A DNA stretch of 64,000 nucleotides from an uncultured delta proteobacterium (GTDB lineage: Bacteria; Desulfobacterota; Binatia; UBA9968): the NCBI GenBank assembly GCA_963816145.1, contig CAWFJP010000004.1:128001-192000 (forward strand), given 5' to 3'. Position 1 is the first letter of the stretch. The number at the start of each line of letters is the position of its first letter. This document shows, one piece after another, positions 13,403 through 28,659 of the stretch. The position numbers and the translations under genes are program-made. Under the pieces are notes generated by a model, which was not told the origin of the DNA, did not search any database, and worked only from the letters and a program-made list of their open reading frames with translations.

Positions 13403-13531
13403 GCCTGGCTAGCTGATAGACACCGTGGGCTACTCCTATTGGGCAATCAAACCCAGTGGTCACAAGGTATCGCGAGCGTAACATTTCAGCGCCACTCGAC
13501 GGCAGTTCCTTCGCGCCGTAAAACTGAATGA

Positions 13532-13703
13532 CCCTCGGCTTAAGGCCGAGGGGTTCTGAATTCGTCGACTAGAAGTCGACTCTTCCGTGTCGTCATTCCG
13601 GCTTAGGCCGGAATCCAGGTTTTCTTTGGCCTTGCAGCGCGCGCGAAGATGGATGCCGGCCTTCGCCGGCATGACAAACTTTCTCTTCGCCTGAAGGCGA
13701 GGG
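13532..13703. repeat. Composite palindromic element (REP/MITE-like)
   Basis: Hairpins CCCTCGGC-N5-GCCGAGGG (13532-13552), GTCGACT-AGA-AGTCGAC (13564-13580), an inverted REP-like pair GTCATTCCGGCTTAGGCCGGAATCCAG (13592-13618) / TGGATGCCGGCCTTCGCCGGCATGAC (13650-13675), and TCGCC-TGAA-GGCGA (13687-13700). Confidence 0.75.
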
Positions 13704-13903
13704 ATTTCAACCATCCCCGAGAGAGACATTAATAGCCATCGACATTCCGTCTGCCAAGCTGTCCGCAGTTTGCAGCCAATCGTGCAACGACTATCGAACC
13801 CTACGGCTCTGTTGAAATACGACATCCCCGGAATGCGAACCGTCCCATGCATCGTTGGCTTAAACGTTCATCGAATCCCAAACGGTGACAATGGAGCCGT
13901 GCT

Positions 13904-14761
13904 CTAAAACTCGAAAGCAACATCCAATTTGGCATCCGGCGATGCGAGATGGACGCAGACAACATCCTTGGCATGAAATGGGTAGGGTGTCGTCGTGGTT
14001 TCGTAAATTTCCGGCGGCAGCATCGTCAAGTTAACGCCGCCTTCCGACAGTTTTGCGCAAGCGTTGCCGTTAGCGATGTTGACAAATTCTTTCGACGCGT
14101 CGATCGCCAGCTCATCGGCAGTGCTGATGGTGTCGTCCAACATCGTCGAGGCCATCTGTAATAGCAGCTTCGGCGGCACTGACAAGAGACAGTTGAACTC
14201 GACGTTCTCGCCTGCGATCTTTTGCGCAATGACCCAACGGAACCGCCGGATTTTTTCTTTGCCGCTCTCGCAGCGCTCGATGATGATGTCTTGCTTGCCG
14301 AATCGGGTGAACATCAAGAGCATCAGGTCGGTGAATGTCGTAACGATGTCTTTGTGCACCAGGGCGCCGAAAGCGTCGCTGACTTCTGAAGAGAACTTCT
14401 CGGTTTCTTTGTTGTATTCTTTGAGTTCACGTTCGAGCGACTCAATGGTGATAAACCCCTTGAGCATCAGCGCTTCGCCCAACCTTACCCGGTGACAAAT
14501 TTCCTCGACCTGTAAGAGGTCATCGACCTGGATCTGGGTCAAATGGCCCAACTCCACCGCCAATTCGCCAAAGCGCAAAGCCTTGCGTTTCTGCTGCTCT
14601 AGGATGTCTGTGACCTGGGCCGCACTTAGCCAGCCACGTTCCAAGGCCAACGTCCCGATCGGCATCGAAATGGTTTTTTGAAACTCTAGCGCAGCGAGCA
14701 GTTGCTGCGAAGTTATTCGACCTCTCTCGAGTAGAAATTGCCCAAAAAATCTCGTGCTCAT
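13904..14761 (-). CDS. CheX-family phosphatase with N-terminal MshEN-like repeats
   Basis: Four RLGxxLxxxGxI-like repeats, then a CheX domain with ExxN motif (DASKEFVNIANGNA...MLPP); ATG overlaps the cheY stop (ATGA). Confidence 0.8.
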   Translation of the reverse strand: MSTRFFGQFLLERGRITSQQLLAALEFQKTISMPIGTLALERGWLSAAQVTDILEQQKRKALRFGELAVELGHLTQIQVDDLLQVEEICHRVRLGEALMLKGFITIESLERELKEYNKETEKFSSEVSDAFGALVHKDIVTTFTDLMLLMFTRFGKQDIIIERCESGKEKIRRFRWVIAQKIAGENVEFNCLLSVPPKLLLQMASTMLDDTISTADELAIDASKEFVNIANGNACAKLSEGGVNLTMLPPEIYETTTTPYPFHAKDVVCVHLASPDAKLDVAFEF

Positions 14762-15141
14762 AGTTCCACCCCGGCTTCTTGGCAAACGTTCTTCAGGTGC
14801 GCCAGCATGTTTTCCTTCTGCAGCGGTTTTTGCAGGAAGCTCTTGGCCCCCTTCTTGAGACAATCCTGGACGGTCGCCTCGGTGCCGATCGAGCTTACCA
14901 TCACCACACAAGCGCCGGTGTCGACATCGAGCAAGCGCTCGAGGGTGTCGACGCCGGTCACTTCAGGCATGACGACGTCGAGTAACACCAGTTGGGGCTT
15001 GATCTCCTTAAATTTCTCTACGGCCTCGGGGCCGCTGCAGGCGGTGGCGACGACTTCGAAATTGCTGCCGCGCAACTGCGCTGCGAGCATGGCGAGCATC
15101 GTTTTGGAGTCGTCTACGGCGAGAACCTTTACTTTATTCAT
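14758..15141 (-). CDS. cheY: Single-domain response regulator CheY
   Basis: VLAVDD, VLLDVVMP, VSS, FLQKP receiver motifs; inside the che cluster. Confidence 0.85.
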   Translation of the reverse strand: MNKVKVLAVDDSKTMLAMLAAQLRGSNFEVVATACSGPEAVEKFKEIKPQLVLLDVVMPEVTGVDTLERLLDVDTGACVVMVSSIGTEATVQDCLKKGAKSFLQKPLQKENMLAHLKNVCQEAGVEL

Positions 15142-15232: not shown

Positions 15233-16339
15233 TTAACGTCGGCCGCGCACTGGCATTTTCTCAATTGTCCTGCCGTTTAGGATCGCAGCGGCAATCCCGG
15301 AAAGATTGACGACCCGGTCCACCGCACCGTGCTCGATGGCCTCCTTGGGCATACCAAAGACCACGCAGGAGGCTTCGTCCTGGGCGAGGGTATAAGCACC
15401 GGCTTGTTTCATTTCTCGAAGTCCCTCAGCGCCGTCATTACCCATGCCGGTCATGATGACGCCGACGGCGTTGAGTCCGGCGCTCTGCGCCACAGAACGG
15501 AACAGGACATCAACGCTTGGACGATGGCGTGAGACTAACGGCCCGTCGGTGACTTCGACGACATACTGGGCGCCGTTGCGCCGCACCAGGGTATGGAGAT
15601 TTCCCGGCGCTATTAGCGCGCGCCCGGCGGCGATGCGGTCACCGTTAGCGGCTTCCTTGACCTCGATCCGGCAAGTTTGATTTAAGCGTTGAGCGAACGC
15701 CGCGGTGAACCCTTCGGGCATATGTTGCACCACGACGAGCCCCGGTGCATCAGTCGGCATGGACTCGAGGACCATGCGTAATGCTTCGGTGCCGCCGGTG
15801 GACGCCCCAATGGCGACGACTTTGTCGCTGGTAGTCCGCAACGGCAAGGCCGATTTATCCGCAGGTATGGCATCGGGGTTGAACCGCGGTGTCGCGGCAA
15901 TTGGGGGTCTGAGAGATCTTCGCCCCGTCGAGCGCGCTGCCGCCCGTACTGCGTCGATCAAAATGATTGCGGATTCGTGTAAAAACTCGCGCACACCAAG
16001 GCGGGGTTTAGAGACCACGTCGACGGCGCCTTCTTCGAGGGCTTGCAAACCGATGCTGGTGTCGGGACCGGTCAATGCTGAACAAATGATGACGGGAAGG
16101 GGATCTTCGCGGATGATCTTGCGGAGAAAAGTTAGACCGTCCATGCGTGGCATCTCAAGGTCGAGAATCATCACGTCGGGACGTTGATTTTTCATCTTAC
16201 CCATGGCGATGAACGGATCGCCGGCGACCACGACGTTAAAGCCCGGCTCCTGAGACAGCACCGCAGTCATCACCTCGCGCACGACGGCGGAATCGTCGAC
16301 CACCAGGATATTCAATGGGCCATGGTGAATGGTATTCAT
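15233..16339 (-). CDS. cheB: Chemotaxis methylesterase CheB (receiver plus catalytic domain)
   Basis: ILVVDDSAVVR, AIGASTGGTEAL, VVQHMP, HRPSVDVLF, MTGMGNDGA; ATG 16339 overlaps the cheR stop. Confidence 0.95.
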   Translation of the reverse strand: MNTIHHGPLNILVVDDSAVVREVMTAVLSQEPGFNVVVAGDPFIAMGKMKNQRPDVMILDLEMPRMDGLTFLRKIIREDPLPVIICSALTGPDTSIGLQALEEGAVDVVSKPRLGVREFLHESAIILIDAVRAAARSTGRRSLRPPIAATPRFNPDAIPADKSALPLRTTSDKVVAIGASTGGTEALRMVLESMPTDAPGLVVVQHMPEGFTAAFAQRLNQTCRIEVKEAANGDRIAAGRALIAPGNLHTLVRRNGAQYVVEVTDGPLVSRHRPSVDVLFRSVAQSAGLNAVGVIMTGMGNDGAEGLREMKQAGAYTLAQDEASCVVFGMPKEAIEHGAVDRVVNLSGIAAAILNGRTIEKMPVRGRR

Positions 16340-17280
16340 CCTGTTGTGAGCACTCCCCGGCTTTTCATTCCTCTCGGTCTCAGCGGAGTTTGGGGCTGGT
16401 CGGTGATCGTATAGATTGTTGGTACAATATAGCGCACTCGATCGGTAACTCCGGTCAGACTCTCGGCGTGGCCGACAAAGAGAAATCCGTTCGGTGCCAG
16501 GCGGTCGACCAAACGCTGGATCACGCGGGCACGCGACTGGGTGTCGAAGTAGATCAGTACATTGCGGCAAAAAATCAAATCGAGATTCCCCGTAACCGGA
16601 TAGTCGTCGTCGTTGAGGTTGAGCCGTTCGAAGCGCACCACCGAGCGTAGTTCCGCCCCGGCTTTCATATTGCCGCTTTGCTCGCCGCTTCCCTTGAGCA
16701 TATATTTTTTGAGGTAGCCCTGGGGAATCTCACTGGCTTTGTCGATCGGCCACATCCCGGCGGCGCCTGTGCTGAGCGCGCGGGTCGAGAGATCAGTTGC
16801 GAGGATTTCAAAGTCCCACCCTGAACCTGTTGGAAAGTGATTCCACAACATCATCGCGAGGGAAAAGGGCTCCTCGCCGCTGGAGCAAGCGGCGCTCCAG
16901 GCCCGGATATGTCGGGTGCCGCCGGCCGACCGATTGCGCTCCTTCCACGCGGGAAAGACTTCATTTTCGAGAAACTCGAATTGCTTGGGCTCGCGAAAGA
17001 AATGGGTTTCGTTTGTCGCTATGCGATCGAGCAGGACAATCAGCTCGTCACTGTGATCACTATCCAGAATATGGCGGTAATAGGCTGCAAATGAACTCAA
17101 GCCCAGTTCCCGCAAACGTCGCGTCAGCCGAGCTTCGAGCAGAGCTTTCTTTGCCGGGACGAGGTGGATCCCGGCCTCCCGATAGATCAGCTTTTGAAAC
17201 AGCACAAACTCACGATCCGAGACCGGACGAGTGGCAGGTTCGACGGTTGCTTGAGTTGGCGCTGAGGTCGGGTGATTCAT
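16336..17280 (-). CDS. cheR: Chemotaxis methyltransferase CheR
   Basis: TNETHFFRE, WSAACSSGEEP, IFCRNVLIYFD, GHAESL. Confidence 0.96.
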   Translation of the reverse strand: MNHPTSAPTQATVEPATRPVSDREFVLFQKLIYREAGIHLVPAKKALLEARLTRRLRELGLSSFAAYYRHILDSDHSDELIVLLDRIATNETHFFREPKQFEFLENEVFPAWKERNRSAGGTRHIRAWSAACSSGEEPFSLAMMLWNHFPTGSGWDFEILATDLSTRALSTGAAGMWPIDKASEIPQGYLKKYMLKGSGEQSGNMKAGAELRSVVRFERLNLNDDDYPVTGNLDLIFCRNVLIYFDTQSRARVIQRLVDRLAPNGFLFVGHAESLTGVTDRVRYIVPTIYTITDQPQTPLRPRGMKSRGVLTTG

Positions 17281-17408
17281 GGTCAAAGTGTCGCCACCCG
17301 TTGATCACGGACGCGCCCATGGTGCGCAACGGCGCCGTCACTCCAGGATGCCTTTCGATGGGTCATTCTTTTGCTACCTTTGTTGCCGTTGGCTATGCCG
17401 CACCTTCG

Positions 17409-18983
17409 TTAGAATCGTTGATAATCTCGGTCATTGTCGTGATCTGGCTGTCGACGATCATTGTCCCGTCCGGTTTTAACCGACGGTAAGTGGTGCAGAG
17501 GAAGTTTCAATGACTGCTGCGACCGGTTGTGTTGGCGCCGGGTTGCCGCGGGCTGCGCCAATTTCACTGTTCCCCCTATTTCAGTGTAGATCTGAAACGC
17601 GCTCATTAATTTCTGTAGCTCTTGGGCTCGGGAGGCGAGTTGTCCGGCTGTGCTTGTCAGCTCTTCAGCCGCGGCTGCGTTGGTTTGCGTGACTCGATCC
17701 ACCTGAGTCATCGCCTTATTCACGTGGTGCACCCCGACCCCCTGTTCGCGCGAAGCGGTGGACACTTCTTGCACCAACTCCGCGGTCTTGCGAATCGCCG
17801 GCACGAGATCGTTCAGCAATCGCCCGGACCGTTCGGCGACTTTGAGGCTAGACGCCGTTAGCGAACTGATTTCTTGAGCTGCGGCTTGACTGCGTTCGGC
17901 CAATTTCCTGACCTCGGTAGCGACTACGGAAAATCCTTTACCATGTTCACCGGCGCGGGCCGCCTCGATGGCGGCATTGAGCGCGAGCAGGTTGGTCTGG
18001 TAGGCGATCTCTTCAACGATGGTAATCTTTTCAGCGATCGTATTCATCGCGTCAACGGACTCAGAAACAGCCCTGCCGGATTCTTCGACTTGGCGCGCCC
18101 CAGCAAGCGCCATCTGTTCCATTTGCCGACTGTTGTCGACGTTTTGGCCAATCGAGGCATTCATTTGCTCCAGACTCGAAGTGGTTTCCTCGACCGAGGC
18201 AGCTTGCTCACTGGTGCCCTGCGCTAGGACCTCCGCCGAGGATGAAAGTTGATGGGAGACCAGCGCTACCGCGTCCGCCGACATGCGGACCTGGGCGATC
18301 ACGAGAGTGAGTTGATCGACAAACTGATTGAACGATCGCGCGACATCGCCGATCTCGTTGTTCGCGCTGTAATCGATACGCTTGGTCAAGTTGCCGTCAC
18401 CTTGGGCGATTTCATTAAGTCGGTCGGCGACCAGGGACAGCGGCCGGGAGATCTCCCGGCGCATCAAAAATGTCAAGACAACGAATAAGAAAACTAAACT
18501 CACTGCCTCGCGCAGAATGATGCTCCACCAGCCGCGGCCGACTAATTTTTCAAGTGACGCCGTCGAAATCCACAAGGTAACTGAACCAATAGCCTCCGTG
18601 TTATTGAAAAACACCGGGCGGGTGACGGCAAGAGTGGCTGTCAGGTTGGCTTTATCGCCACGGGTTGCGTTGATCTTTCCGGATTTGTCTTTAACCTCAA
18701 TATATTTAATTGCTGGATCATTGCCGAACGCGGCGATCGTTCCGTTGATCTTGTACTGATTAAAGGTGAACAACGCGCTGGCGATATTGTCTGCTAGAAG
18801 ATCGGCTGTGCGCACGCCTTGTTTTTTGATATCCGCCAATAGCGACCGGTGCCCTATATAGCTGGTCAGAAGCGCGGAAAGGACACCGACCGCCAGCAAG
18901 GCGAGCCCGGTGACCAGGCTGAAACGAAACGCCAGGCTACTCCTGCGCCGTTCGCTGATCCGATTGAAGTTGAAAAAATTCAT
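17409..18983 (-). CDS. Methyl-accepting chemotaxis protein (2 TM, small periplasmic domain, HAMP, C-terminal pentapeptide DYQRF)
   Basis: [40 protein letters not shown] signalling tip. Confidence 0.95.
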
Positions 18984-18995
18984 ACAATTGTCTTG

Positions 18996-19202
18996 CTACC
19001 TGACTTTGTTTGGCGCCGGTCGGGCGCTTGTTGTCCGGTCGCATGCCGACATTTTCTCTTGGTTCTTCACCATGTCGGGATTAGCTCAGTCGGCGATCTT
19101 GTCTGTCAACCGACCCGAACCGCCGCCACTCATCTGGTTTTGGACAGAGACTGCCGCCGTACCGAGCAAAACGGCAATTATAATCGGGATTGGGACTTTC
19201 AC
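18996..19202 (-). pseudogene. Probable remnant of a secreted/periplasmic sensor protein with in-frame TGA
   Basis: AAGGA RBS and GTG start: MKVPIPIIIAVLLGTAAVSVQNQMSGGGSGRLTDKIAD*ANPDMVKNQEK...; TGA at 19086-19088, frame continues to TAG at 18996. Confidence 0.4.
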
Positions 19203-19225
19203 GATCCTTCTTGCCTTTGCGGTTT

Positions 19226-20470
19226 TTACAATTCATTGGTCCAGCGCGAGGGCTTGAAACCTGTCGCGCCGTTTACATCGGCGGCCCTTGCCGATTGATG
19301 CGCGCCGAGAGATCGTTCCTGTCTTGCCCGGGCATGTTCCTGCTGAACGCCTTGGGTCGGAGCCTGGCTACTGTTTGCGATTGGCTTCGGGGTTGAGCTT
19401 GGGGTGGTTGGGTCGACTCTGAACACGCTCATGAGTTGCTGCAGGTTCTCGGCATTGGCGGCCATTTGATCCGCGGTGATCGAGAGTTCTTCGGCCCAAG
19501 CCGCGTTGCGCTGGGTTACTTTGTCAACCTGCGTCATGGCTTTGTTAACTTGGGCTACTCCCAGCGCCTGTTCTCTTGACGCCGTCGCCACCTCCTGCAC
19601 TAACTCAGCGGTCTTCCTGATCGATGGCACCAACCCGACCAAGACTTCCCCCGACCGTTCAGCGACTCTCACGCTCGAAGAGGTAAGCGAGCTGATGTCT
19701 CCGGCGGCGATTTGGCTTCTTTCCGCGAGCTTTCTAACTTCGCTGGCGACAACGGCGAAGCCCTTGCCATGCTCGCCAGCGCGCGCCGCCTCGATGGCGG
19801 CATTGAGAGCCAAAAGATTCGTCTGATAAGCAATTTCTTCGACGATGGAAATTTTCTCGGCGATGGTTTTCATGGCATTGACCGATTCGGCAACCGCTTG
19901 GCTGCTTTCGGCAATGTCTTTGGATCCCTTGAGGGCCATCTGTTCCATCTGGCGCGAGTTCTCCGCGTTCTGGGTGATCGAAGCGTTCATCTCCTCCAGG
20001 CTAGCGGTGGTTTCTTCCACCGCCGCGGCATGCTCGCTGGTCGACTGGGTCAGATTCTGCGCTGAGGCCGCGATCTCGCCTGCGGCCTTCGATAAGGTGT
20101 CGGCGGTGCTGATCACCCACTCGATGGACTCGTGGAGATTGTCCGTAAAAGTGTTGTATGCGCGGGCCACCTCGCCGAGTTCGTCGCCTCGGTCGATCGC
20201 TTTCACCCATCTGAGCAATCCCGACTGTCCGTGATTGTGATTGTTGAAACGGTTGGCAAAATTGAGCAGGGGTCGGGCAATACTATCCGCCAGATACCAA
20301 GCGACAAAACAATTTAGGATCGTGAAACCAACGCCGATCCCGAGCAGGATATTGAAACTCGCGCCCTGCGCCGCCAATGCGCCGCAGACAGCGTAGCCGA
20401 GCGCGAAAAGGGCGGATAGTAGGTAGAACTTTTTTCTGATCGTCAGCCGTCTGAGCATCAAGCGTAACAT
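19226..20470 (-). CDS. Methyl-accepting chemotaxis protein with almost no periplasmic domain
   Basis: Two closely spaced TM helices, HAMP, conserved signalling tip; ATG 20470 just after the upstream MCP stop. Confidence 0.93.
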
Positions 20471-20472
20471 CG

Positions 20473-22188
20473 TTATTGCTCCCTCTGCGAATTGACTTGC
20501 CGGTTTCGTGCGCCGTTGACTTTTGACTCGACTGTCCACCGGGGCGGCTTGAAGGATTGAGCCCCTGTCCTGGTCGTTACTTCGCTTTTCGCTGTTGATA
20601 ACAATCGCATATCGCTTTGCTCCATCGACGGCGCCGCAGCAATCGCTGATCCCGATCGTCGCTGCCCGACTGATGCCGCGTATGGGTTTCCCTGTGGCGG
20701 TCCGTTGTCTGGGGCGTTGTCGATTCGGAAGGCGCTCAATAGCTGTTGCAGACTGGCGGCTTGAGAAGCCATCTGATCGGCGGTGCCGGAGAGCTCTTCG
20801 GCGGCCGAAGCATTTCGCTGCGTGACCTGATCCATCTGGGTCATCGCCTGGTTGACTTGGGAAACGCCGGCGGCTTGTTCTCTGGAGGCGGTGGCGACTT
20901 CCTGGACCAACTCGGCGGTCTTTTTTATCGACGGGACCAGATCTGTTAGCACCGCTGCCGATCGTTCAGCGATGCGCACGCTGGATGCGGTCAAGGCGTT
21001 GATCTCCTGGGCGGCGCACTGGCTGCGTTCGGCGAGATTCCTGACCTCTGTGGCGACCACTGCGAAGCCTTTGCCGTGCTCGCCGGCGCGGGCGGCTTCG
21101 ATGGCGGCGTTGAGAGCCAGCAAATTGGTTTGATAGGCGATGTCCTCGATGACCGCGGTCTTCGCGGCGATGGTTTCCATCGCCGCGGCAGACTCACCGA
21201 CAGCCTGGCTGGACTGAGCGATTTCATGAGCGCCATTGAGGGCCATGAATTCCATTTGTCTGCTGTTGTCTGCGTTCTGGGTGATCGAAGCGTTCATCTG
21301 CTCGAGGCTGGCGCTGGTTTGTTGCACCGAGGCGGCTTGCTCGCTGGTTCCCTGCGAGAGCGATTGCGACGAGGCCGCGACTTGGGAAGAGGCCGAAGCG
21401 ATTTCATCAGCGGCGGACTTCACCGACTGCACCATCGCTCGCAGCTGGGTGACCATTACTTTGCATGCCGATTGCATTTGGCCGATCTCATCTTCGCCAT
21501 GCACGGTGACGGTTTGACTAAGATCGCCATGGGCGACGGTTTGCACCAGGGCAACTAAATTGCGGATCGGAGCGGTAACCCATTTTTGCAAGATCAGGAA
21601 CACCCCCGCGGCGGAAACCGCAAGTGATACCAGCGCCAGGACCAGAAAGAGTCCGGTCATGCGGCGCTGCGCCGCCCGTATGACCTCCGCCCTTGAAACC
21701 AGCGAGATGTACACCGTGCCTTTTTCATGAACGACCGGATGGATAAAATTGTAGTTGCCGTCAATTGCCAGCGTCAGGGTATTTTTCGGATGCCGGGTCA
21801 GGTGGGTCTGGATCGCCTTGTGCAACTTCAGTTTCTTTTCTTCGCTGGGGTCGCTGTGAACTGCTAGATTGCCTTCGCCATCGTAGACTGCGATATGGGC
21901 GAGTTCGGGATTGGCTTTCTGCAACGCCAGGATATCGCCTTTGAGAACGATGAATACGTTGGGTTGATAGCCGACTTGATTCAATAGGTCCGTGACCCGA
22001 GTTCTCAGCGGTTGGATGAGTACCGCGGAGCGGGCTTCCAGCCAATGAAGATATTCGGCGGTGAAGACCGACACGTTAATCCAGGCGCCGACACCGAGCA
22101 CGGCCATCAGGAGAAGCGCAACCGGTATTGCAATTTTTGCTCGGAGGTCGTTCTTAATCTGCTGCATAAAATTTGCGCGGCTTATCAC
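20473..22188 (-). CDS. Methyl-accepting chemotaxis protein (periplasmic sensor, HAMP)
   Basis: TM-sensor-TM-HAMP, [40 protein letters not shown]. Confidence 0.95.
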
Positions 22189-22265
22189 CTGGTTTATCCA
22201 CGTTGCTCCTAAGAGTTGATTGGCGCGGTTCCTTTCCCAACTGCCAGGCGACGTTTCGAGTTTGC

Positions 22266-22787
22266 TTACAGCGCTGCCGCCGCTCCCTGTTCCGATGCGT
22301 TGACGCCGCGTGCCGTCGGCACAAGATCGTCAGCGTTCAAGACTTTATCGATGTCGAGGACCAAGACGAACTTGTCGCCGGATTTTCCCATGCCGCGCAG
22401 AAAATCGATGCGTCTCCGGGTGCCGAAGGCCGGCGCCGGTAAAATATTGTCTTCCGACATACTAATCACTTGGCTGACGGAGTCGGCGATGACGCCCATG
22501 ACCGCGCGGCTCTCGTTGATATCGGCTTCGACGATGACGATGCATGTGCGATCGGTCACGGGGCTGGCGGTCAAACCAAACTTGAGCCCGAGATCTACGA
22601 CCGGGACGACATTGCCGCGTAAATTGATCACGCCGCGGATCGACGGCGGGGTGTGCGGCACTTTGGTCAGAGTCCCGTAGGTTATGATTTCCCTGACCTG
22701 CAAGATGCCCACGGCGTATTCCTCCCCGGCCAAATGAAATGTCAGATATTGCGTCTGGTCGAAGCTATTATTTTTGTCATGCATCAC
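22266..22787 (-). CDS. cheW: Chemotaxis coupling protein CheW
   Basis: [29 protein letters not shown]. Confidence 0.95.
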
Positions 22788-22802
22788 GGACCTCGATTAA
22801 TT

Positions 22803-24515
22803 TTACTGCAATGAATTCAGGTTCGTTGGGCCTCCGTCGCCACCGCGGTTGGCGACTAAGCTGGCGGCGCTGCCGTTGCCATGGAAGCGAATCACCTCGC
22901 GCATCAAGGCGGAGACATCGAGGATCAGAGCTACTCTGCCGTTACCCATGATCGCCGATCCGGAGACACCGGGAAGGTCTCTAAATTGGTCACCGAGAGA
23001 TTTGATCACGGTCTGGCGCGCGCCTTGGAGGGTATCCACAGCCAACCCGGCTTTGGCGCCGTCGAGGTCGACGACGACGATGTTTTCGCGATCAGGGCGG
23101 GGGCTCGAAAGTTCGAACCAGTTGCGTAAACGAACATAAGGCAGCGGCTCGCCGCGCAAATTGATGACGCCCTGGGGTCGGTCGTGGGAGCGTTCGGCGA
23201 CCGGCATTTCGATGCACTCGCTGACCGCATGCAACGGCAGCACATAAGTATCCTCACCGATGCCGACGCCGAAGCCCTCGATGATCGCTAGGGTCAACGG
23301 CAAGCGCATGGTGATAGTCGTCCCTTTGCCCCGCTCGCTGTCGATGCCCACCGAACCGCGCAGCTCTTCGATGTTGCGACGCACCACGTCCATGCCGACG
23401 CCGCGGCCGGATAAGTCCGTGACCGCGTCGGCAGTCGAAAATCCAGGTTCGAAAATCATCCGATAAAGCTCTTGGTCGGCTAGTTTGTCCGGCTCCGCGA
23501 CGTTACCGATAATTTTTGCCTGTTCAATTATTTTGCTGCAGTTGAGTCCGGCGCCATCGTCGCTCACTTGGATGACGATTTTGGCGCCCTCGTGGAAGGC
23601 CTTGAGCGAAATGGTGCCGCAGGGATCCTTGCCGTGCGCCTTGCGAGTCTCAGGCGGCTCGATGCCATGATCGAGGGCGTTGCGAATCATATGCATGAGC
23701 GGATCTTTGAGATGCTCGATGACACTGACATCGACCTCGACGTCTTCCCCCTCCAAAGTGAGCAGGGCGGATTTGCCGTGATCGTTTGCGACATCGCGGA
23801 CGGTGCGGATGTACTGACGAAACGTCGGGCCCACCGGCACCATGCGCACCTTCATGATGTGCTCCTGAAGTTCGAGGGAAAGTCGTTCGACTTGGTCCTG
23901 GGCTTCAAGCGCTTCAGTTTTTTCGTTGCTGGTCTGTTCAATTGCTTGCCGGAGCCGGCCTTGGGCGATGGCGATCTCGCCGGCGAGGTTGAGCATTCGA
24001 TCGAGTTTTTGGGTATCGACACGGATCGTTCCAGCGCGCTCCATCCAGGCCGTGGCGTCGGCTTGGCGGCGACCGAAGGGGCGGCGCGCCGAGTCGACCT
24101 CATGGGGATGGCGGGCGCCGCTGGTTTCCTCCGGCTCACCGCTCGCCAGTTGATTCAACAACGCAATATGCTGTGGTTGCAATTCGTCGCCGCCGGCGAT
24201 CGCTTCGGGCACCATTTGGCGCATTGCGTCAAGCGCATGGAGTAGCAGGGTGATGCGCTGTTGGGTCACCGGCAACGTGCGGTTGCGGAAACGCTGGAGC
24301 ATTTCTTCGAATACATGCGCGAAGCCCGCGACTTTGGGATAACCTAGACTCGCGGAGTTGCCCTTGAGCGTGTGGGCGCCGCGAAAGATCGCTTCGAGGA
24401 GTTTGTCGTCCTCCGGGTTCGCTTCCAGAGCAACGAGAGACTCCTCCATCTTGGCAAAATGCTCTTCAGACTCGGCCATGAAGGTTTGGAGGATCGCTTC
24501 GAAATCGAATTCCAT
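22803..24515 (-). CDS. cheA: Chemotaxis histidine kinase CheA (no P2 domain)
   Basis: Hpt IFRGAHTLKG, TIRVDTQKLDRMLNL, HMIRNALDHGIE, FEPGFST, SGRGVGMDVV, LPLTLAII, C-terminal CheW-like domain. Confidence 0.96.
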   Translation of the reverse strand: MEFDFEAILQTFMAESEEHFAKMEESLVALEANPEDDKLLEAIFRGAHTLKGNSASLGYPKVAGFAHVFEEMLQRFRNRTLPVTQQRITLLLHALDAMRQMVPEAIAGGDELQPQHIALLNQLASGEPEETSGARHPHEVDSARRPFGRRQADATAWMERAGTIRVDTQKLDRMLNLAGEIAIAQGRLRQAIEQTSNEKTEALEAQDQVERLSLELQEHIMKVRMVPVGPTFRQYIRTVRDVANDHGKSALLTLEGEDVEVDVSVIEHLKDPLMHMIRNALDHGIEPPETRKAHGKDPCGTISLKAFHEGAKIVIQVSDDGAGLNCSKIIEQAKIIGNVAEPDKLADQELYRMIFEPGFSTADAVTDLSGRGVGMDVVRRNIEELRGSVGIDSERGKGTTITMRLPLTLAIIEGFGVGIGEDTYVLPLHAVSECIEMPVAERSHDRPQGVINLRGEPLPYVRLRNWFELSSPRPDRENIVVVDLDGAKAGLAVDTLQGARQTVIKSLGDQFRDLPGVSGSAIMGNGRVALILDVSALMREVIRFHGNGSAASLVANRGGDGGPTNLNSLQ

Positions 24516-24522
24516 AATCGTG

Positions 24523-25038
24523 CTACAGCGCTTTGACCCAAGCCGCTCCGTCGTCGGTGTGGAAAATGAGCTTGCGGCCGCGTTGGCCGCCGACATCGTG
24601 ACCTACCAGTGGGATCGACTCGGACTCCAGCAGTTCGCGGGCCACTTCGATATTCTTCGTGCCAAGGTGGTGCTGGCGCTGGCGAAAGGCTTCGAGCACG
24701 CAGGCGCCGCCAAACATCTTGGCCAATAAATTATGTTTTTGACTACCCAAATAGGCCAGCTGATCGAGCAATTCTTTGATCGCGATATTGCCGAAGCGTG
24801 GCGACGCGATGCCTTCGCCACTGAAGCTCGGCAATAGAAAGTGGTTCATGCCGCCGATGCCGCTCAGTGGGTCCCATATACAAACGGCAACACAGGACCC
24901 GAGTATGGTGGTCACGGCATAGCTGTCGGCGGAGACGAACAGTTGGCCTGGGTGAAGATAGGCGGTCGCCCGTTCGGTCGCTGCACTGGGCGGCGACGAT
25001 GGCATGCGGTCGCTGCGAGGTGTTGTTGAGGGATGCAT
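24523..25038 (-). CDS. cheD: Chemoreceptor glutamine deamidase CheD
   Basis: YLHPGQ, TTILGSCVAV, GGMNHFLLP, AKMFGGA, DVGGQRGRK. Confidence 0.95.
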   Translation of the reverse strand: MHPSTTPRSDRMPSSPPSAATERATAYLHPGQLFVSADSYAVTTILGSCVAVCIWDPLSGIGGMNHFLLPSFSGEGIASPRFGNIAIKELLDQLAYLGSQKHNLLAKMFGGACVLEAFRQRQHHLGTKNIEVARELLESESIPLVGHDVGGQRGRKLIFHTDDGAAWVKAL

Positions 25039-25049
25039 TATGACCTTGT

Positions 25050-25421
25050 TCAGTCGCCGAGGAGGTCGCGCACTTTAGCGATCAGTTCCATGCTGTCGAT
25101 GGGCTTGACGATATAGTCGTTGCAACCACTGGCGTAGCCGGTTTCGATGCTGTCCGCTTCGTTTCTGGTCGTGACCATGACGACCGGTACCGTACTCGTA
25201 CGGTGATTTACGCGCAGCTGGCGCAGCGCTTCAAAGCCGCCCATTCGCGGCATGACGACATCCATCAGAATCAGATCAGGATTGCATTCGAGGGCACGCG
25301 CGACACCTTCGGCGCCGTCGCGCGCAACCAGCAGCTCATAGGGCTCCTTGGCGAGAATCATTTGTTCCATCTGCAAGATGGTTTCCGAATCATCGACGAG
25401 TAAGATTTTTCGCGCTGCCAT
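25050..25421 (-). CDS. Single-domain response regulator, first gene of the che operon
   Basis: KILLVDD, LILMDVVMP, MVTT, YIVKP; the longer ORF to 25790 is unlikely. Confidence 0.9.
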   Translation of the reverse strand: MAARKILLVDDSETILQMEQMILAKEPYELLVARDGAEGVARALECNPDLILMDVVMPRMGGFEALRQLRVNHRTSTVPVVMVTTRNEADSIETGYASGCNDYIVKPIDSMELIAKVRDLLGD

Positions 25422-25527
25422 TGCCTTGAAACCTTTCGCTGCATGCACAGGGTTGCCGCGGCGGCGAACCGTGCGGCGCCTTAGACCACTGCCGACGCTG
25501 GCCGAAGCCGCAATCGTGACAACTACG

Positions 25528-25543
25528 AGCAAGATGTCTGCCA
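25528..25543 (-). promoter_or_regulatory. Putative sigma54 (-24/-12) promoter of the che operon
   Basis: Minus strand TGGCAGACATCTTGCT, exact GG-N10-GC spacing, about 105 nt upstream of the first ATG. Confidence 0.65.
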
Positions 25544-25905
25544 ATGTCGAAACTATTGGAAAGAAAGGAAAACTTCGGAGTATTTCAACGAATATCGGTG
25601 CCGTTGAGGAACAACTCTGTACATGAGTGAACAGAGCGATTGGGCGATTTCCCAATACGCTCGCGATGCTGCAGTGGTTCTTCCGTCGGTGAGCAGCTCG
25701 AGGGGTGGGTCGCCGCAAGCTGGATCGCCGAAATGAATTTCCGGTGTTGGCACGCAAGCCAATCGTATCCTGCACGTCATGGTTTTCCACCGATGACTGG
25801 ATTCGGTCCCAATATGTCCAATTGCGGCCAATGCTGCGCTTTGAGTCTTTCGGTAGGATTAAGCCATCTTTTGGTTATTATTGGGTTTTAGGTCGTTCAA
25901 TGGGG

Positions 25906-25986: not shown

Positions 25987-27834
25987 GTGAGATTCGTGGC
26001 GGAAGATAAAAACGATCAGCCGTTGGGAAGCCAGACAATTGGCGCTGCCAATGGGAAAGACGTGTTATATGGTTGGCTTGTCGGTCGGGCTGCGGCCGAT
26101 CTCGGATTGGCACAAGCGATCGCCGCAAGCGAGGCGCAACGGGCGGAACAGATCAAGCGTCTCGAGGCAGCGTTGCTCGGGCAAATGCGTGAGCTGCAAA
26201 ACAGTCAAGCAACGTTTTCCGGATCGTCCGTAGACGGAGCTGAAGTCGACCGACTGAAGGATCAATTCCAGCAATTTGGCGAACGGCAAAATTTTCTCGA
26301 GGCGCAACAGCTTACCATTGGGCAGATCGAAGCCCAGTTATCAGCTAAAATTGTCGAGCTGCAAGCTCAGATCGAGCAGCCGCCAGCGGCGGCTGCCAGC
26401 GCCGAAGTTAACGCGCTGCGTGCCGAAATGGCCGGGTTCGCCGAACGTCTCGCGCAGGCCGAGGCGTGTGCAACGCGCGAACCTGCGCCAGTAGATAGTC
26501 GTCCGGTTGAGGAGCAAATTGCCGTCGTCGTGCGCGAGCAAACCGAAGAGCTGAAAACCCAACTATTCGAGCACCTCCAAAGACAAACTGCTGTCGGCTA
26601 TGAACTCAAGACTCTGGAGACTGCTTTCCAGCAAAAGCTCGATGGCTTGAAACAAGAGATCCGGGAGAAGGCCGCGCTCTTGCGCTTGCGCGATGGCGAA
26701 CTAAGTGAACTGCGGGTTCAACTTGCCCGCGTGGAGCAGCGGCTCGATCAAGTGGCGGCAACGCCGCCGCCCGAAACCAGCGCCAGCGAGCGGGAAGCGG
26801 AGCGGGCGCTGTGGCAGCGCGACTTCGACGAACGGTTAAGCGTCCGCTTGCGCGAGTTGGGCGACGAGATTCGCGTCAAGCTCCACGCAGTGACCAGCGC
26901 CAACGTCGATCAAGAACAATTTCACGGCGAGACTATGGCGTTGACGGCGCGCATCGCACAGTTGGAGCACTCCCACCAGGAAGCCAATTCTGGCGCCGCG
27001 GTGGAGGCGCGCGAAGCCTACCAAGCCACGGTGGCGTTGCGCGGCGAAATAGCGGCGTTGAAAGCCACGCTCGTAGAACAGCAAAGCACCCAGTCCAACG
27101 ACGGACTGATTCGCAGTGTGGAGGAGATGTTGTGCGGCCAAGTTCACGAACTCCACAATCAGATCGCGCAAAATCAGCGCGGCGGCCTCGAATGGGAGAA
27201 GCAAATAAAAGATTTGCGCGTCGATCTTCAATCGCTGATGCAGCGGCAAATCCAATCGGAGTCGTTGGCCCAGCAGACCCATGCGCGGGAGACTCAAGAA
27301 ACCGCGCAGATCTGCGGCGGCCTTAAGTCCGATCTGTTGGCGATCGAGGCGCAATTGAACGAACAGCGTTCGCGCGATGCGGCGCTGCAAGGCATGGAAG
27401 AGACGTTGAATCTGCGCCTGCGCGAGATACATAGTCAGTTGGCCCAGGGGATGTCGGCGCTCGACCAGCGCGACGGCGAGTTGCGCGATCTCAAGAATCA
27501 AGTACAGCACCTGGCGCAACAGGTCGGTCAAAGCGGTCAGGCGGCGTCGTTTGCGTCCCTTAGCCGGCCAGATCCGGTGGCTGCGATTCCTGCGGTGGCG
27601 CCATCAAGTGGAGTCATGTCTGGGCTGCAAGCGGCCGAGCTGCGACCAATGGCTGCCGCAGGCAGCGCGGATACCATGCCGAATTTATTACAGCCGGTTG
27701 TACCCGGCAATGGCCACGCAACGGATCAGAGTAAGATTTCGCCGATTGATTTACATGACCGTCTGTCCGCGGAGATCGAGCGCAAACGGGCCGAGCTGCG
27801 AGAAAAGAGCGGCCGCTGGAAAGTGCGGCAGTAG
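25987..27834 (+). CDS. Large coiled-coil protein of unknown function with internal repeats
   Basis: 615-aa E/Q/L/A-rich heptad ORF, no TM or signal peptide; start may be GTG 25987 or 25996. Confidence 0.85.
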   Translation: MRFVAEDKNDQPLGSQTIGAANGKDVLYGWLVGRAAADLGLAQAIAASEAQRAEQIKRLEAALLGQMRELQNSQATFSGSSVDGAEVDRLKDQFQQFGERQNFLEAQQLTIGQIEAQLSAKIVELQAQIEQPPAAAASAEVNALRAEMAGFAERLAQAEACATREPAPVDSRPVEEQIAVVVREQTEELKTQLFEHLQRQTAVGYELKTLETAFQQKLDGLKQEIREKAALLRLRDGELSELRVQLARVEQRLDQVAATPPPETSASEREAERALWQRDFDERLSVRLRELGDEIRVKLHAVTSANVDQEQFHGETMALTARIAQLEHSHQEANSGAAVEAREAYQATVALRGEIAALKATLVEQQSTQSNDGLIRSVEEMLCGQVHELHNQIAQNQRGGLEWEKQIKDLRVDLQSLMQRQIQSESLAQQTHARETQETAQICGGLKSDLLAIEAQLNEQRSRDAALQGMEETLNLRLREIHSQLAQGMSALDQRDGELRDLKNQVQHLAQQVGQSGQAASFASLSRPDPVAAIPAVAPSSGVMSGLQAAELRPMAAAGSADTMPNLLQPVVPGNGHATDQSKISPIDLHDRLSAEIERKRAELREKSGRWKVRQ

Positions 27835-27942: not shown

Positions 27943-28659
27943 ATGGCCAACGGAAACAGGGTGCCGACCGGAATCGTCGAACTCGATGCGCTCATCGAAG
28001 GCGGCTTGCGGGCCGGTAAAACATATCTCGTCGTCGGTGAGCCGGGGACGGGCAAGACCGTTTTCGGCTTGCAGTTTCTCGTCAACGGTTTGATGGAGAA
28101 AGAACGAGGGCTTTACGTCGCCATCGACGAAAAGCCCGCCGACGTGCTCGACCAAGCCGCGTCCCTGGGCTGGGACCTGGCGCCGTTTATCGAGTCCAAA
28201 GAGTTCGTCATCCTCGATGCCTCGGCTTATTTCAGCGGTAGCAGCGATACCCAGAAAAAAATCGATGTGCAACGGGTAGTCGCTGACCTCAATGCTTATA
28301 TCACGCGCATGGGCGCCACCCGGCTGGTGATCGATCCGGTGGGACCGCTGTTATTCAACCGCGAAGCGACATCGCGGGCGCCGGATCAGGCGCGTATGCT
28401 TTTCTACGGTCTCCAGGCCAATGGCAATACGACGAATCTGCTGACCACTTATTCGGTCGAACGCAACGTCCGCGGCCTGGAAGAATATCTCGTCGCCGGT
28501 ACCATCGTACTAGAAATGGAGTTGGTCAAGAGCCGCTTCGTGCGCACGTTGACCATTGAGAAAATGCGCAGCACGGCGTTGGCGCCGGCGCAGTATTTGT
28601 TCAATATCGTTGCCGACCGTGGCATTGTCTTGCAAGGTTTGAGCGATGCCGCGGGTTGA
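27943..28659 (+). CDS. Single-domain KaiC/RAD55-like ATPase (RecA superfamily)
   Basis: RVPTGIVELDALIEGGL, Walker A GEPGTGKT, Walker B RLVID, IEKMRS. Confidence 0.9.
   Translation: MANGNRVPTGIVELDALIEGGLRAGKTYLVVGEPGTGKTVFGLQFLVNGLMEKERGLYVAIDEKPADVLDQAASLGWDLAPFIESKEFVILDASAYFSGSSDTQKKIDVQRVVADLNAYITRMGATRLVIDPVGPLLFNREATSRAPDQARMLFYGLQANGNTTNLLTTYSVERNVRGLEEYLVAGTIVLEMELVKSRFVRTLTIEKMRSTALAPAQYLFNIVADRGIVLQGLSDAAG

Follow-up and report, generated by a model that had tools for sequence, protein, structure and literature searches.

Four MshEN-type motifs fused to a CheX phosphatase domain at the end of a Binatia che operon

Wang et al. 2016 (Nat Commun 7:12481, PMC5013675) defined the MshEN module for binding of cyclic di-GMP (c-di-GMP) as a pair of 24-residue motifs of consensus RLGxx(L/V/I)(L/V/I)xxG(L/V/I)(L/V/I)xxxxLxxxLxxQ, with a 5-residue joint between them. 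The main text of that paper states that MshEN is also associated with CheA and with the phosphatase CheX, its Supplementary Table 4 lists the architecture "(MshEN_N)2-CheX" with Geobacter lovleyi Glov_2742 (ACD96455) as example, and its authors propose an involvement of c-di-GMP in the regulation of chemotaxis; the primer table names constructs for MshE, Dgeo_0263, Moth_1554, EKB11881 and ACB36052, and none for Glov_2742. Here we describe a gene of this architecture (four motifs followed by CheX, about 280 amino acids) in a stretch of 64,000 nucleotides, called the window throughout, of an uncultured Binatia bacterium (assembly GCA_963816145.1, contig CAWFJP010000004.1, positions 128,001 to 192,000). 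An earlier note on this DNA had presented the gene as a possible, little-studied entry point of c-di-GMP into chemosensory signalling. The architecture itself was catalogued in 2016, so that it is no new kind of system but a widespread putative c-di-GMP/chemotaxis junction of catalogued design; a full-text search found, within the library searched, no study of an MshEN-CheX fusion. The gene and the elements of its product are as follows.

13904 to 14761, minus strand: fusion gene of MshEN-type motifs and CheX, 285 amino acids, from the open reading frame (ORF) and its translation; the stop codon lies in the range.
14678 to 14749, minus strand: motif 1, residues 5 to 28, FFGQFLLERGRITSQQLLAALEFQ, predicted outer hairpin; position 1 is F or Y in 88 of 90 family members and Arg in none.
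14591 to 14662, minus strand: motif 2, residues 34 to 57, predicted first half of an inner MshEN_N-like pocket, with G36 and Q57; from superposition of 5htl_B and covariation with motif 3.
14504 to 14575, minus strand: motif 3, residues 63 to 86, predicted second half of the inner pocket, with R63, G65 and E86; from models and covariation.
14414 to 14485, minus strand: motif 4, residues 93 to 116, predicted outer hairpin, ending in Y116; from covariation with motif 1.
13907 to 14359, minus strand: CheX domain, residues 135 to 285; from structure alignment, Foldseek, family profile and Pfam.
14078 to 14089, minus strand: catalytic ExxN, E225-F-V-N228; from the sequence and its alignment to 1xko.
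14303 to 14305, minus strand: Arg153 on CheX helix 1, co-conserved and co-lost with G36 and G65 of the inner pocket.

The closest described protein, Glov_2742, agrees in domain order, in size, in its FFGQFL start and in the even spacing of its four motifs. The window protein differs from it in belonging to a Binatia-type clade, with a third spacer of 6 residues and with E86; moreover, whereas Wang and colleagues annotate Glov_2742 as a tandem of modules, our models and covariation favour nested pairs, motifs 2+3 within motifs 1+4. With the N-domain of Vibrio cholerae MshE (5HTL) and the GSPII-B domain of Thermus PilF (8PDK) the window protein shares Gly-3, Gly-10 and hydrophobic residues at motif positions 2, 17 and 21, but it lacks MshEN_C and the ATPase, carries two extra hairpins that flank the bundle, and has Pro34/Arg63 at position 1 and Gln57/Glu86 at position 24 of the inner pair; its candidate contact from outside the bundle would be CheX Arg153 in place of Asp108 of MshEN_C. 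The whole fold of about 150 residues is common to stand-alone CheX proteins (Thermotoga maritima 1XKO/1SQU; Borrelia burgdorferi CheX-CheY complex 3HZH), which likewise lie in a che operon next to cheY, although identity is only 15–18% and the window protein adds a putative N-terminal sensor of 135 residues. Other known systems link c-di-GMP indirectly to the level of phosphorylated CheY (CheY-P) or to motor bias, namely PlzC/CheX in Vibrio cholerae, MapZ/CheR1 in Pseudomonas aeruginosa and YcgR at the motor: PlzC is reported to act through CheX, in a motility role distinct from its c-di-GMP-dependent role in biofilms (PMC12799141), and MapZ and YcgR are mentioned as c-di-GMP inputs to chemotaxis (PMC12887009). 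These three are separate PilZ proteins, and two 2026 Vibrio papers deal with a stand-alone CheX under the control of such proteins, whereas in the window protein the phosphatase itself carries the presumed receptor. A CheA of Aeromonas veronii with an inserted MshEN_N (EKB11881; Wang 2016) also places the module inside a core chemotaxis protein, but in a kinase and as a single module (construct 261–395 in the primer table).

The domain assignments rest on profile searches and on a predicted structure, two of the checks that the earlier note had proposed, and both bear out its description of four tandem 24-residue motifs ahead of a CheX domain with intact ExxN. The motifs, at residues 5–28, 34–57, 63–86 and 93–116, are evenly placed with spacers of 5, 5 and 6 residues, and the second helix of motif 4 extends to residue 132. 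The NCBIfam model NF053729 (c-di-GMP_motif, MshE-related, 53 positions) matches the protein in three stretches (E 2.8e-20; 71.8 bits, above the cut-off of 38); residues 6–57 alone score 49.7 bits and residues 34–84 alone 37.3 bits, just under that cut-off. Pfam CheX (PF13690) matches residues 188–257 at 33.8 bits, above its cut-off of 27 (E 3.5e-8). When the Pfam threshold is relaxed to E 0.1, the protein gains matches to FumaraseC_C, DUF4388 and CheC only, none of them of T2SSE_N type. The active-site pattern reads D221-x3-E225-x2-N228-x20-P249-P250, with the spacing from ExxN to Pro-Pro found in Thermotoga CheX, and E225/N228 align with ELGN...PP of 1xko. ExxN with a downstream proline is the active-site consensus of CheC and CheX, which belong with FliY to one phosphatase superfamily. 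E225, N228, G232 and P250 are each conserved in at least 90% of the family, 189 of 196 non-redundant members retain both E225 and N228, and a family profile finds CheX chains of the PDB with E values from 1.5e-17 (3hm4) to 7.9e-11.

In the full-length AlphaFold model (predicted local distance difference test, pLDDT, 95.3; predicted template modelling score, pTM, 0.83), 1squ_A superposes on residues 135–285 with Z 20.6 and a root-mean-square deviation (rmsd) of 2.1 over 149 of 152 residues. Eight solved CheX entries match residues 128–285 with Z 18.2–20.6, compared with Z 10–12.4 for FliY, FliM and CheC, and Foldseek finds 3hm4_A with E 5.8e-11. At the N-terminus, residues 7–64 of 5htl_B, from the structure of MshE with c-di-GMP, superpose on model residues 32–89 (58 aligned, rmsd 1.3, 29% identity) with Z 11.7, a value to be read with the caution that small helical bundles call for; this sets MshE Arg9 on P34 and Arg38 on R63. 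All 13 matches to N-domains of MshE, PilF and PilB map inside residues 28–92, the matches to MshE and PilF cover only the first 58 or so residues of those proteins, and sequence comparison gives the same register (phmmer aligns residues 35–83 to MshE 10–58; family profile positions 33–86 align to MshE 8–61). A model of residues 1–135 built from a separate alignment of 61 sequences places 5htl_B on residues 32–90 with Z 11.6. No superposable MshEN_N-like bundle made of motifs 1+2 or 3+4 was seen, and no alpha/beta MshEN_C subdomain or T2SSE ATPase was found after the hairpins, where CheX follows instead. As a side observation, the inner pair (residues 34–86; 14504–14662) is the region of the sub-threshold Pfam matches to FumaraseC_C and DUF4388, and the C-terminal domain of class II fumarases aligns with it structurally with Z of about 7–7.7; the two probably share a small arrangement of helices without being homologous.

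Given that all spacers measure about 5 residues, sequence alone would allow any adjacent pairing of the motifs. We therefore read the pairing from the models together with covariation, in a mean-field direct coupling analysis (DCA) of 196 sequences (137 cluster representatives, 20 close homologues and 39 loci) filtered at 80% identity, about 173 effective, over 39060 residue pairs at least 6 positions apart. Couplings between motifs 2 and 3 number 9 in the top 50 and 14 in the top 100, and those between motifs 1 and 4 number 6 and 9; the counts for the other combinations are 1 and 2 (motifs 1 and 2), 1 and 4 (3 and 4), 0 and 0 (1 and 3) and 0 and 1 (2 and 4). The couplings between motifs 2 and 3 include the reciprocal pairs I35–L82 (position 2 of motif 2 with 20 of motif 3) and I53–F64 (20 with 2), as well as G36–G65 (3 with 3) and A39–A68 (6 with 6), a set that matches the prediction of a pseudo-two-fold MshEN_N bundle. 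Mutual information with average product correction and six 70% subsamples gave the same ranking (9–13 for motifs 2 and 3, 7–11 for 1 and 4, 1–5 for 1 and 2, and 1–8 for 3 and 4). In the family, position 1 of the successive motifs is held by an aromatic residue (F/Y in 88 of 90 members), by a basic residue or Pro, by a basic one, and by an aromatic or hydrophobic one; position 24 is Q in the first three motifs and F/Y in the fourth. This run is compatible with a canonical pair inside a diverged one. Therefore, on the strength of two AlphaFold models, the profile alignments and the covariation, we moderately favour a nested fold, 1[2·3]4, in which motifs 2+3 would form the inner pair and motifs 1+4 the outer one. 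Profile similarity between motifs, closest for 2 and 3 and farthest for 1 and 2, points to no clear history of duplication.

The strongest couplings from sensor to enzyme run between the inner pocket and CheX helix 1: G36–R153 ranks 8 of 39060 and P34–K156 ranks 16, and L83–R153 and G65–R153 are also strong. The triple of G36, G65 and R153 is present in 160 of 196 members. Both glycines are found in 170, all of which have Q57 and 160 of which have R153; in the 16 members that have lost both, R153 is retained in 4 (His stands there in 8) and Q57 in 6, while the same 16 keep E225/N228 throughout, G7 in 14 cases and G95 in 13. This pattern suggests that the inner pocket and R153 act as a single site, which has been given up in some lineages that still retain phosphatase and outer hairpins. 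With G36, G65, Q57 and R153 all kept, the window protein is one of the intact cases. Further couplings connect hairpin 4 (E112, G95, Y116) with I229 and N233 beside the ExxN helix; at ranks of about 50–60 in an alignment of this depth they are weak and serve as leads only. Covariation is what points to both putative contacts, R153 with the pocket and hairpin 4 with the ExxN helix.

The combination of motifs and CheX recurs widely. A homology scan of 1.84 billion cluster representatives (50%-identity clusters) returned 2558 matches at E of 1e-3 or below, 876 at 1e-10 or below and 42 at 1e-30 or below. Among the 150 best representatives, 137 span the whole protein with the same four motifs, a recurrence beyond chance, and 131 of those 137 keep E225 and N228. 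The 250 homologues in 90% clusters are mostly 285 amino acids long and are named CheX by their source, as are the close relatives (66–99% identity) from metagenome-assembled genomes of Binatia type and similar; the window protein falls in this Binatia-type clade (third spacer of 6 residues, E86), in which motif 1 is the best-conserved N-terminal element. A scan of species genomes from a seed alignment of 10 sequences gave 80 loci of 115 relatives, a set skewed by its single seed pattern, FGQ[FY]LLE[RK]G, toward members with that N-terminus; it includes Binatia, Sericytochromatia, Planctomycetota, Auribacterota, Elusimicrobiota, Nitrospirota, Armatimonadota, Acidobacteriota, Gemmatimonadales, Lysobacteraceae, Oceanospirillaceae and Desulfuromonadales, among others.

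An upstream ORF (same strand, at least 90 amino acids, ending within 150 nucleotides upstream) could be called in 63 of the 80 loci, and in 55 of these it is a receiver; the other eight comprise three ORFs with no assigned family and one each of histidine kinase, CheX, CheC, GlyQ and desaturase. An ATGA overlap recurs in 18 of the 63. Moreover, all four N-extended members scanned are fusions of receiver, sensor and CheX, all four members scanned with a C-terminal extension of about 130 residues are fusions of sensor, CheX and receiver, and one member of 700 amino acids runs on into PAS-HisKA-HATPase. A CheY-type receiver as the working partner is thus well supported by context, through the upstream receivers, the ATGA overlap and the receiver fusions.

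In the window itself the fusion gene is the last gene of a minus-strand che operon. Its translation begins MSTRFFGQ and ends at a TAG stop at 13904–13906, and its ATG (14761–14759) overlaps the TGA of cheY (14760–14758) as ATGA, the coupling to cheY that had been noticed earlier. The ATG at 14761 is the real start, since homologues begin with the same MSTRFFGQ; these homologue starts rule out the upstream TTG of the longest ORF. The partner and the rest of the operon lie at:

14758 to 15141, minus strand: cheY, single-domain receiver of 127 amino acids (Pfam Response_reg, E 1.6e-24), its stop overlapping the start of the fusion gene.
15233 to 25790, minus strand: remaining che operon, with CheB, CheR, three methyl-accepting chemotaxis proteins (MCPs), CheW, CheA, CheD and a 246-residue protein with a C-terminal receiver (Pfam scan).

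From its head the operon reads 246-residue receiver protein, CheD, CheA, CheW, three MCPs, CheR, CheB, CheY and fusion gene. It is the genome's sole che operon: the only CheA match (H-kinase_dim) and the only CheX lie in it. The first gene (25050–25790, minus strand) has about 120 N-terminal residues without a Pfam match ahead of its receiver. Beside the operon head lies a divergent ORF of 615 amino acids (25987–27831, plus strand) to which Pfam assigns no family at E 1e-5; the next gene encodes a KaiC-like ATPase (27943–28656). The longest ORFs of the adjacent MCP genes at 19226–20539 and 20473–22188 (minus strand) share 67 nucleotides, and the downstream one probably starts at a later codon. 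On the 3' side of the fusion gene, a spacer of 500 bp with a dispersed repeat precedes genes for endonuclease III and enolase on the opposite strand. Within it, 13520–13720 holds short hairpin-rich segments that recur genome-wide, with individual 16-mers in up to 42 copies in the assembly, and looks like a dispersed repeat of the repetitive extragenic palindromic (REP) or miniature inverted-repeat transposable element (MITE) kind. An Rfam search downstream of the fusion gene gave no match, and a promoter and terminator scan there gave one weak terminator-like site, at 13547–13530.

The domain identities, the fold, the catalytic residues, the gene coupling and the covariation pattern are observed; nucleotide binding, its stoichiometry and the sign of its effect are inferred. 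The reading we prefer, and to which we give an even chance, is that the protein is a CheX-family CheY-P phosphatase with a nested c-di-GMP sensor of four hairpins that passes the state of its ligand to the enzyme. The N-terminal 135 residues would form this sensor from four MshEN-type helical hairpins, of which hairpins 2+3 would make an MshEN_N-like four-helix pocket for one c-di-GMP, while hairpins 1+4 would pack round it and against the CheX domain. The upstream CheY, made together with the fusion protein, would most likely be dephosphorylated through E225/N228. Arg153 of CheX helix 1 and the pocket glycines would be parts of one co-conserved site, and because of this shared site ligand occupancy could be passed directly to the phosphatase domain, altering the rate of CheY-P turnover. 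We lean very slightly toward the ligand-bound, docked state as the less active one, because the weak couplings put hairpin 4 beside the ExxN helix. A more detailed version, in which one pocket (2+3) is completed by Arg153 and wrapped by an aromatic-lined pair 1+4 leaning on the ExxN helix, so that a single dinucleotide would be the sensor-enzyme glue that switches CheY-P hydrolysis, is tentative and on the whole doubtful.

Several results weigh against a c-di-GMP sensor of this kind, beginning with the motifs. None of the four fits the strict consensus of Wang 2016, and a relaxed pattern fits two (motifs 2 and 4); the motifs depart from the consensus at position 1 (F5, P34), at position 11, which is normally hydrophobic (R15, H73), and at position 24 (E86, Y116), where E86 replaces a Gln found in 83 of 90 family members and Y116 occupies a site that is F/Y in 82 of 90. 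Precedents for motif-like domains without binding exist in PilF GSPII-A (PMC12002112) and XpsE (PMC5013675), and the literature searched yielded no binding or activity data for any member of the fusion family. The N-terminal-only model is only moderately confident, far less so than the full-length one (pLDDT 73.3, pTM 0.44, best at residues 41–80), covariation at about 173 effective sequences does not distinguish contacts within a chain from those across a dimer, and AlphaFold and DCA are not fully independent because both use related signal. Finally, the assembly (7.82 Mb in 31 contigs, 99.47% complete, 6.72% contamination) contains a single GGDEF domain by Pfam; TIGR00254 finds the same domain and nothing else below E 0.06, and tblastn and hidden Markov model (HMM) searches from six congeneric GGDEF domains over six-frame ORFs lead to the same single locus:

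G000:C31:412147-412602 (L081:1600-2463), minus strand: sole GGDEF domain, on a membrane protein of 287 amino acids, from profile searches.

This domain is degenerate, reading RLAGTTF where the six congeneric domains have RYGG[DE]E[FL] and DVSGIQ where they have D[LV]DxFK, and such a domain is presumably no cyclase, given the established role of the acidic residues. Production of c-di-GMP by the organism is thereby in doubt: either the cyclase gene is absent from the assembly, or the ligand is in question for this strain.

These points feed the alternative that survives best, namely that the four hairpins bind no nucleotide here and serve as a structural, dimerisation or docking module of a CheX that is constitutive or regulated by a partner. 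The degenerate MshEN-like N-domains of XpsE and Xanthomonas PilB serve in this way, the non-binding PilF GSPII-A is a further precedent (PMC12002112), and the complexes of the PilB N-domain with PilZ (7lko, 7lkn, 7lkm) match the same model region with Z 8.9–9.1. The sensor is also far more variable than the CheX half in the close clade, with G36, G65 or G95 lost in relatives P0005, P0013, P0020, P0029, P0068, P0088 and P0121, and no active-looking diguanylate cyclase was found in the assembly. Yet the window protein retains exactly the set, G36, G65, Q57 and R153, that is lost jointly when the pocket decays, has Gly at positions 3 and 10 and hydrophobic residues at 2, 17 and 21 in each of the four motifs, and passes NF053729 with residues 6–57 alone. 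The earlier note had warned that repeats 1 and 2 lack the leading Arg, so that binding was not assured. The absence is real (F5, P34), and motifs 3 and 4 in addition lack the trailing Gln (E86, Y116), a point beyond that note; the missing Arg nevertheless weighs less than feared, as position 1 has been extended to R/K/L, and Leu there even raises affinity (K167L, dissociation constant (KD) 2 nM versus 6 nM for the wild type; Neissner et al. 2024, PMC11731258). At position 24 the inner pair holds one Gln (Q57) and one Glu (E86); a single Q-to-E exchange is reported to give a KD of about 450–800 nM at pH 8.5, and exchange of both abolishes binding at pH 7.5 (2025 Angewandte, PMC12207366). Binding of c-di-GMP by the window protein is plausible from its residues, perhaps in weakened form.

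The genome also argues for use of c-di-GMP, against a hairpin module that binds nothing. It keeps an EAL protein of 267 amino acids, in which the strings EAL, DDFGTG and EGVE all occur, and two PilZ proteins that each contain RxxxR and DxSxxG; these are the motifs of EAL and PilZ proteins, respectively. A protein of 486 amino acids (G000:C10, L082:714-2171, minus strand) starts with a near-canonical single MshEN_N (NF053729, 61.3 bits), has no other NCBIfam match at E 1e-10 and may, judged by its motif, be another c-di-GMP effector; the remainder of this protein has a P-loop-like GAAGNGKT string. MshEN-type motifs further occur on a PilB-type ATPase (42.4 bits) and a GspE-type ATPase (32.5 bits, below the cut-off of 38). 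Among 18 congeneric genomes, one of them (G005) unpublished, 17 have GGDEF domains, many canonical, and 8 have the fusion gene at full or near-full length, each with at least one GGDEF match. We consider the non-binding module unlikely, though it deserves serious weight.

A second alternative accepts binding but pairs the motifs differently, as two independent tandem MshEN_N modules (1+2 and 3+4) with one c-di-GMP each, which is the annotation of Wang 2016, where Glov_2742 is aligned as modules 1–60 and 61–119, and was implied by the earlier note. Spacers of about 5 residues would permit it, the stretch that best matches NF053729 is residues 6–57, and PilF GSPII-B and PilB 6olj align best with profile positions 59–115 and 6–56. 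Both AlphaFold models, however, put the MshEN_N-like bundle on residues 32–90; the top 50 couplings hold one each for motifs 1 and 2 and motifs 3 and 4 against 9 and 6 for the nested pairs, stably in subsamples; G36 of motif 2 and G65 of motif 3 are lost jointly; and the run of aromatic, basic, basic and aromatic residues at position 1 fits nested pseudo-symmetric pairs, all of which makes the tandem improbable. That the pocket takes another nucleotide, such as 3'3'-cyclic GMP-AMP (cGAMP) or a different dinucleotide, is very improbable: MshEN_N does bind cGAMP weakly (KD 3.3e-4 M, PMC5013675), the assembly has no canonical GGDEF cyclase and the residues at positions 1 and 24 are unusual, but the affinity for cGAMP is about 600-fold below that for c-di-GMP (PMC5013675) and congeners with the fusion gene carry canonical GGDEF domains.

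For the preferred reading, a phosphatase under a nested c-di-GMP sensor, the output of the pathway in this organism is uncertain. Searches of the assembly for the flagellar FliG_C and FHIPEP (FlhA) found neither, and the genome has type IV pilus ATPases, a PilB (TIGR02538, 739 bits) and, side by side, two of PilT/PilU type (TIGR01420), as well as a GspE (TIGR02533, 638.6 bits); the che output may be type IV pili or another function, or the flagellar genes may be missing from the bin. CheA occurs in 10 of the 18 congeners and FliG in 2 (G003 and G004), which are those with the most similar fusion gene (83% and 79% identity), so flagellar genes seem patchy in the genus or patchily binned. With FliG also in 4 of 5 distant genomes that carry the family, a tie of the whole family to non-flagellated cells is ruled out, and the family at large probably serves flagellar chemotaxis because of those distant carriers.

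Direct gating of CheY-P dephosphorylation by c-di-GMP, as the earlier note suggested, may reasonably be read into these sequences. What is new here is the nested-pocket model with Arg153, together with its setting in a genome without recognisable cyclase and flagellar genes, which poses small puzzles of its own: it has receptors and a phosphodiesterase for c-di-GMP but no evident cyclase, and a che operon but no recognisable flagellar genes. If the detailed model holds, it would be a previously undescribed wiring of an MshEN-type module to an output domain, and the sensor-enzyme glue would work here in a genome with neither flagellar genes nor a recognisable diguanylate cyclase. If c-di-GMP binds and alters activity, the messenger of the choice between motile and sessile life would act directly on the lifetime of CheY-P, without a PilZ adaptor, and the family, with its 876 clusters in many phyla, would be a major, uncharacterised junction of c-di-GMP and chemotaxis signalling.

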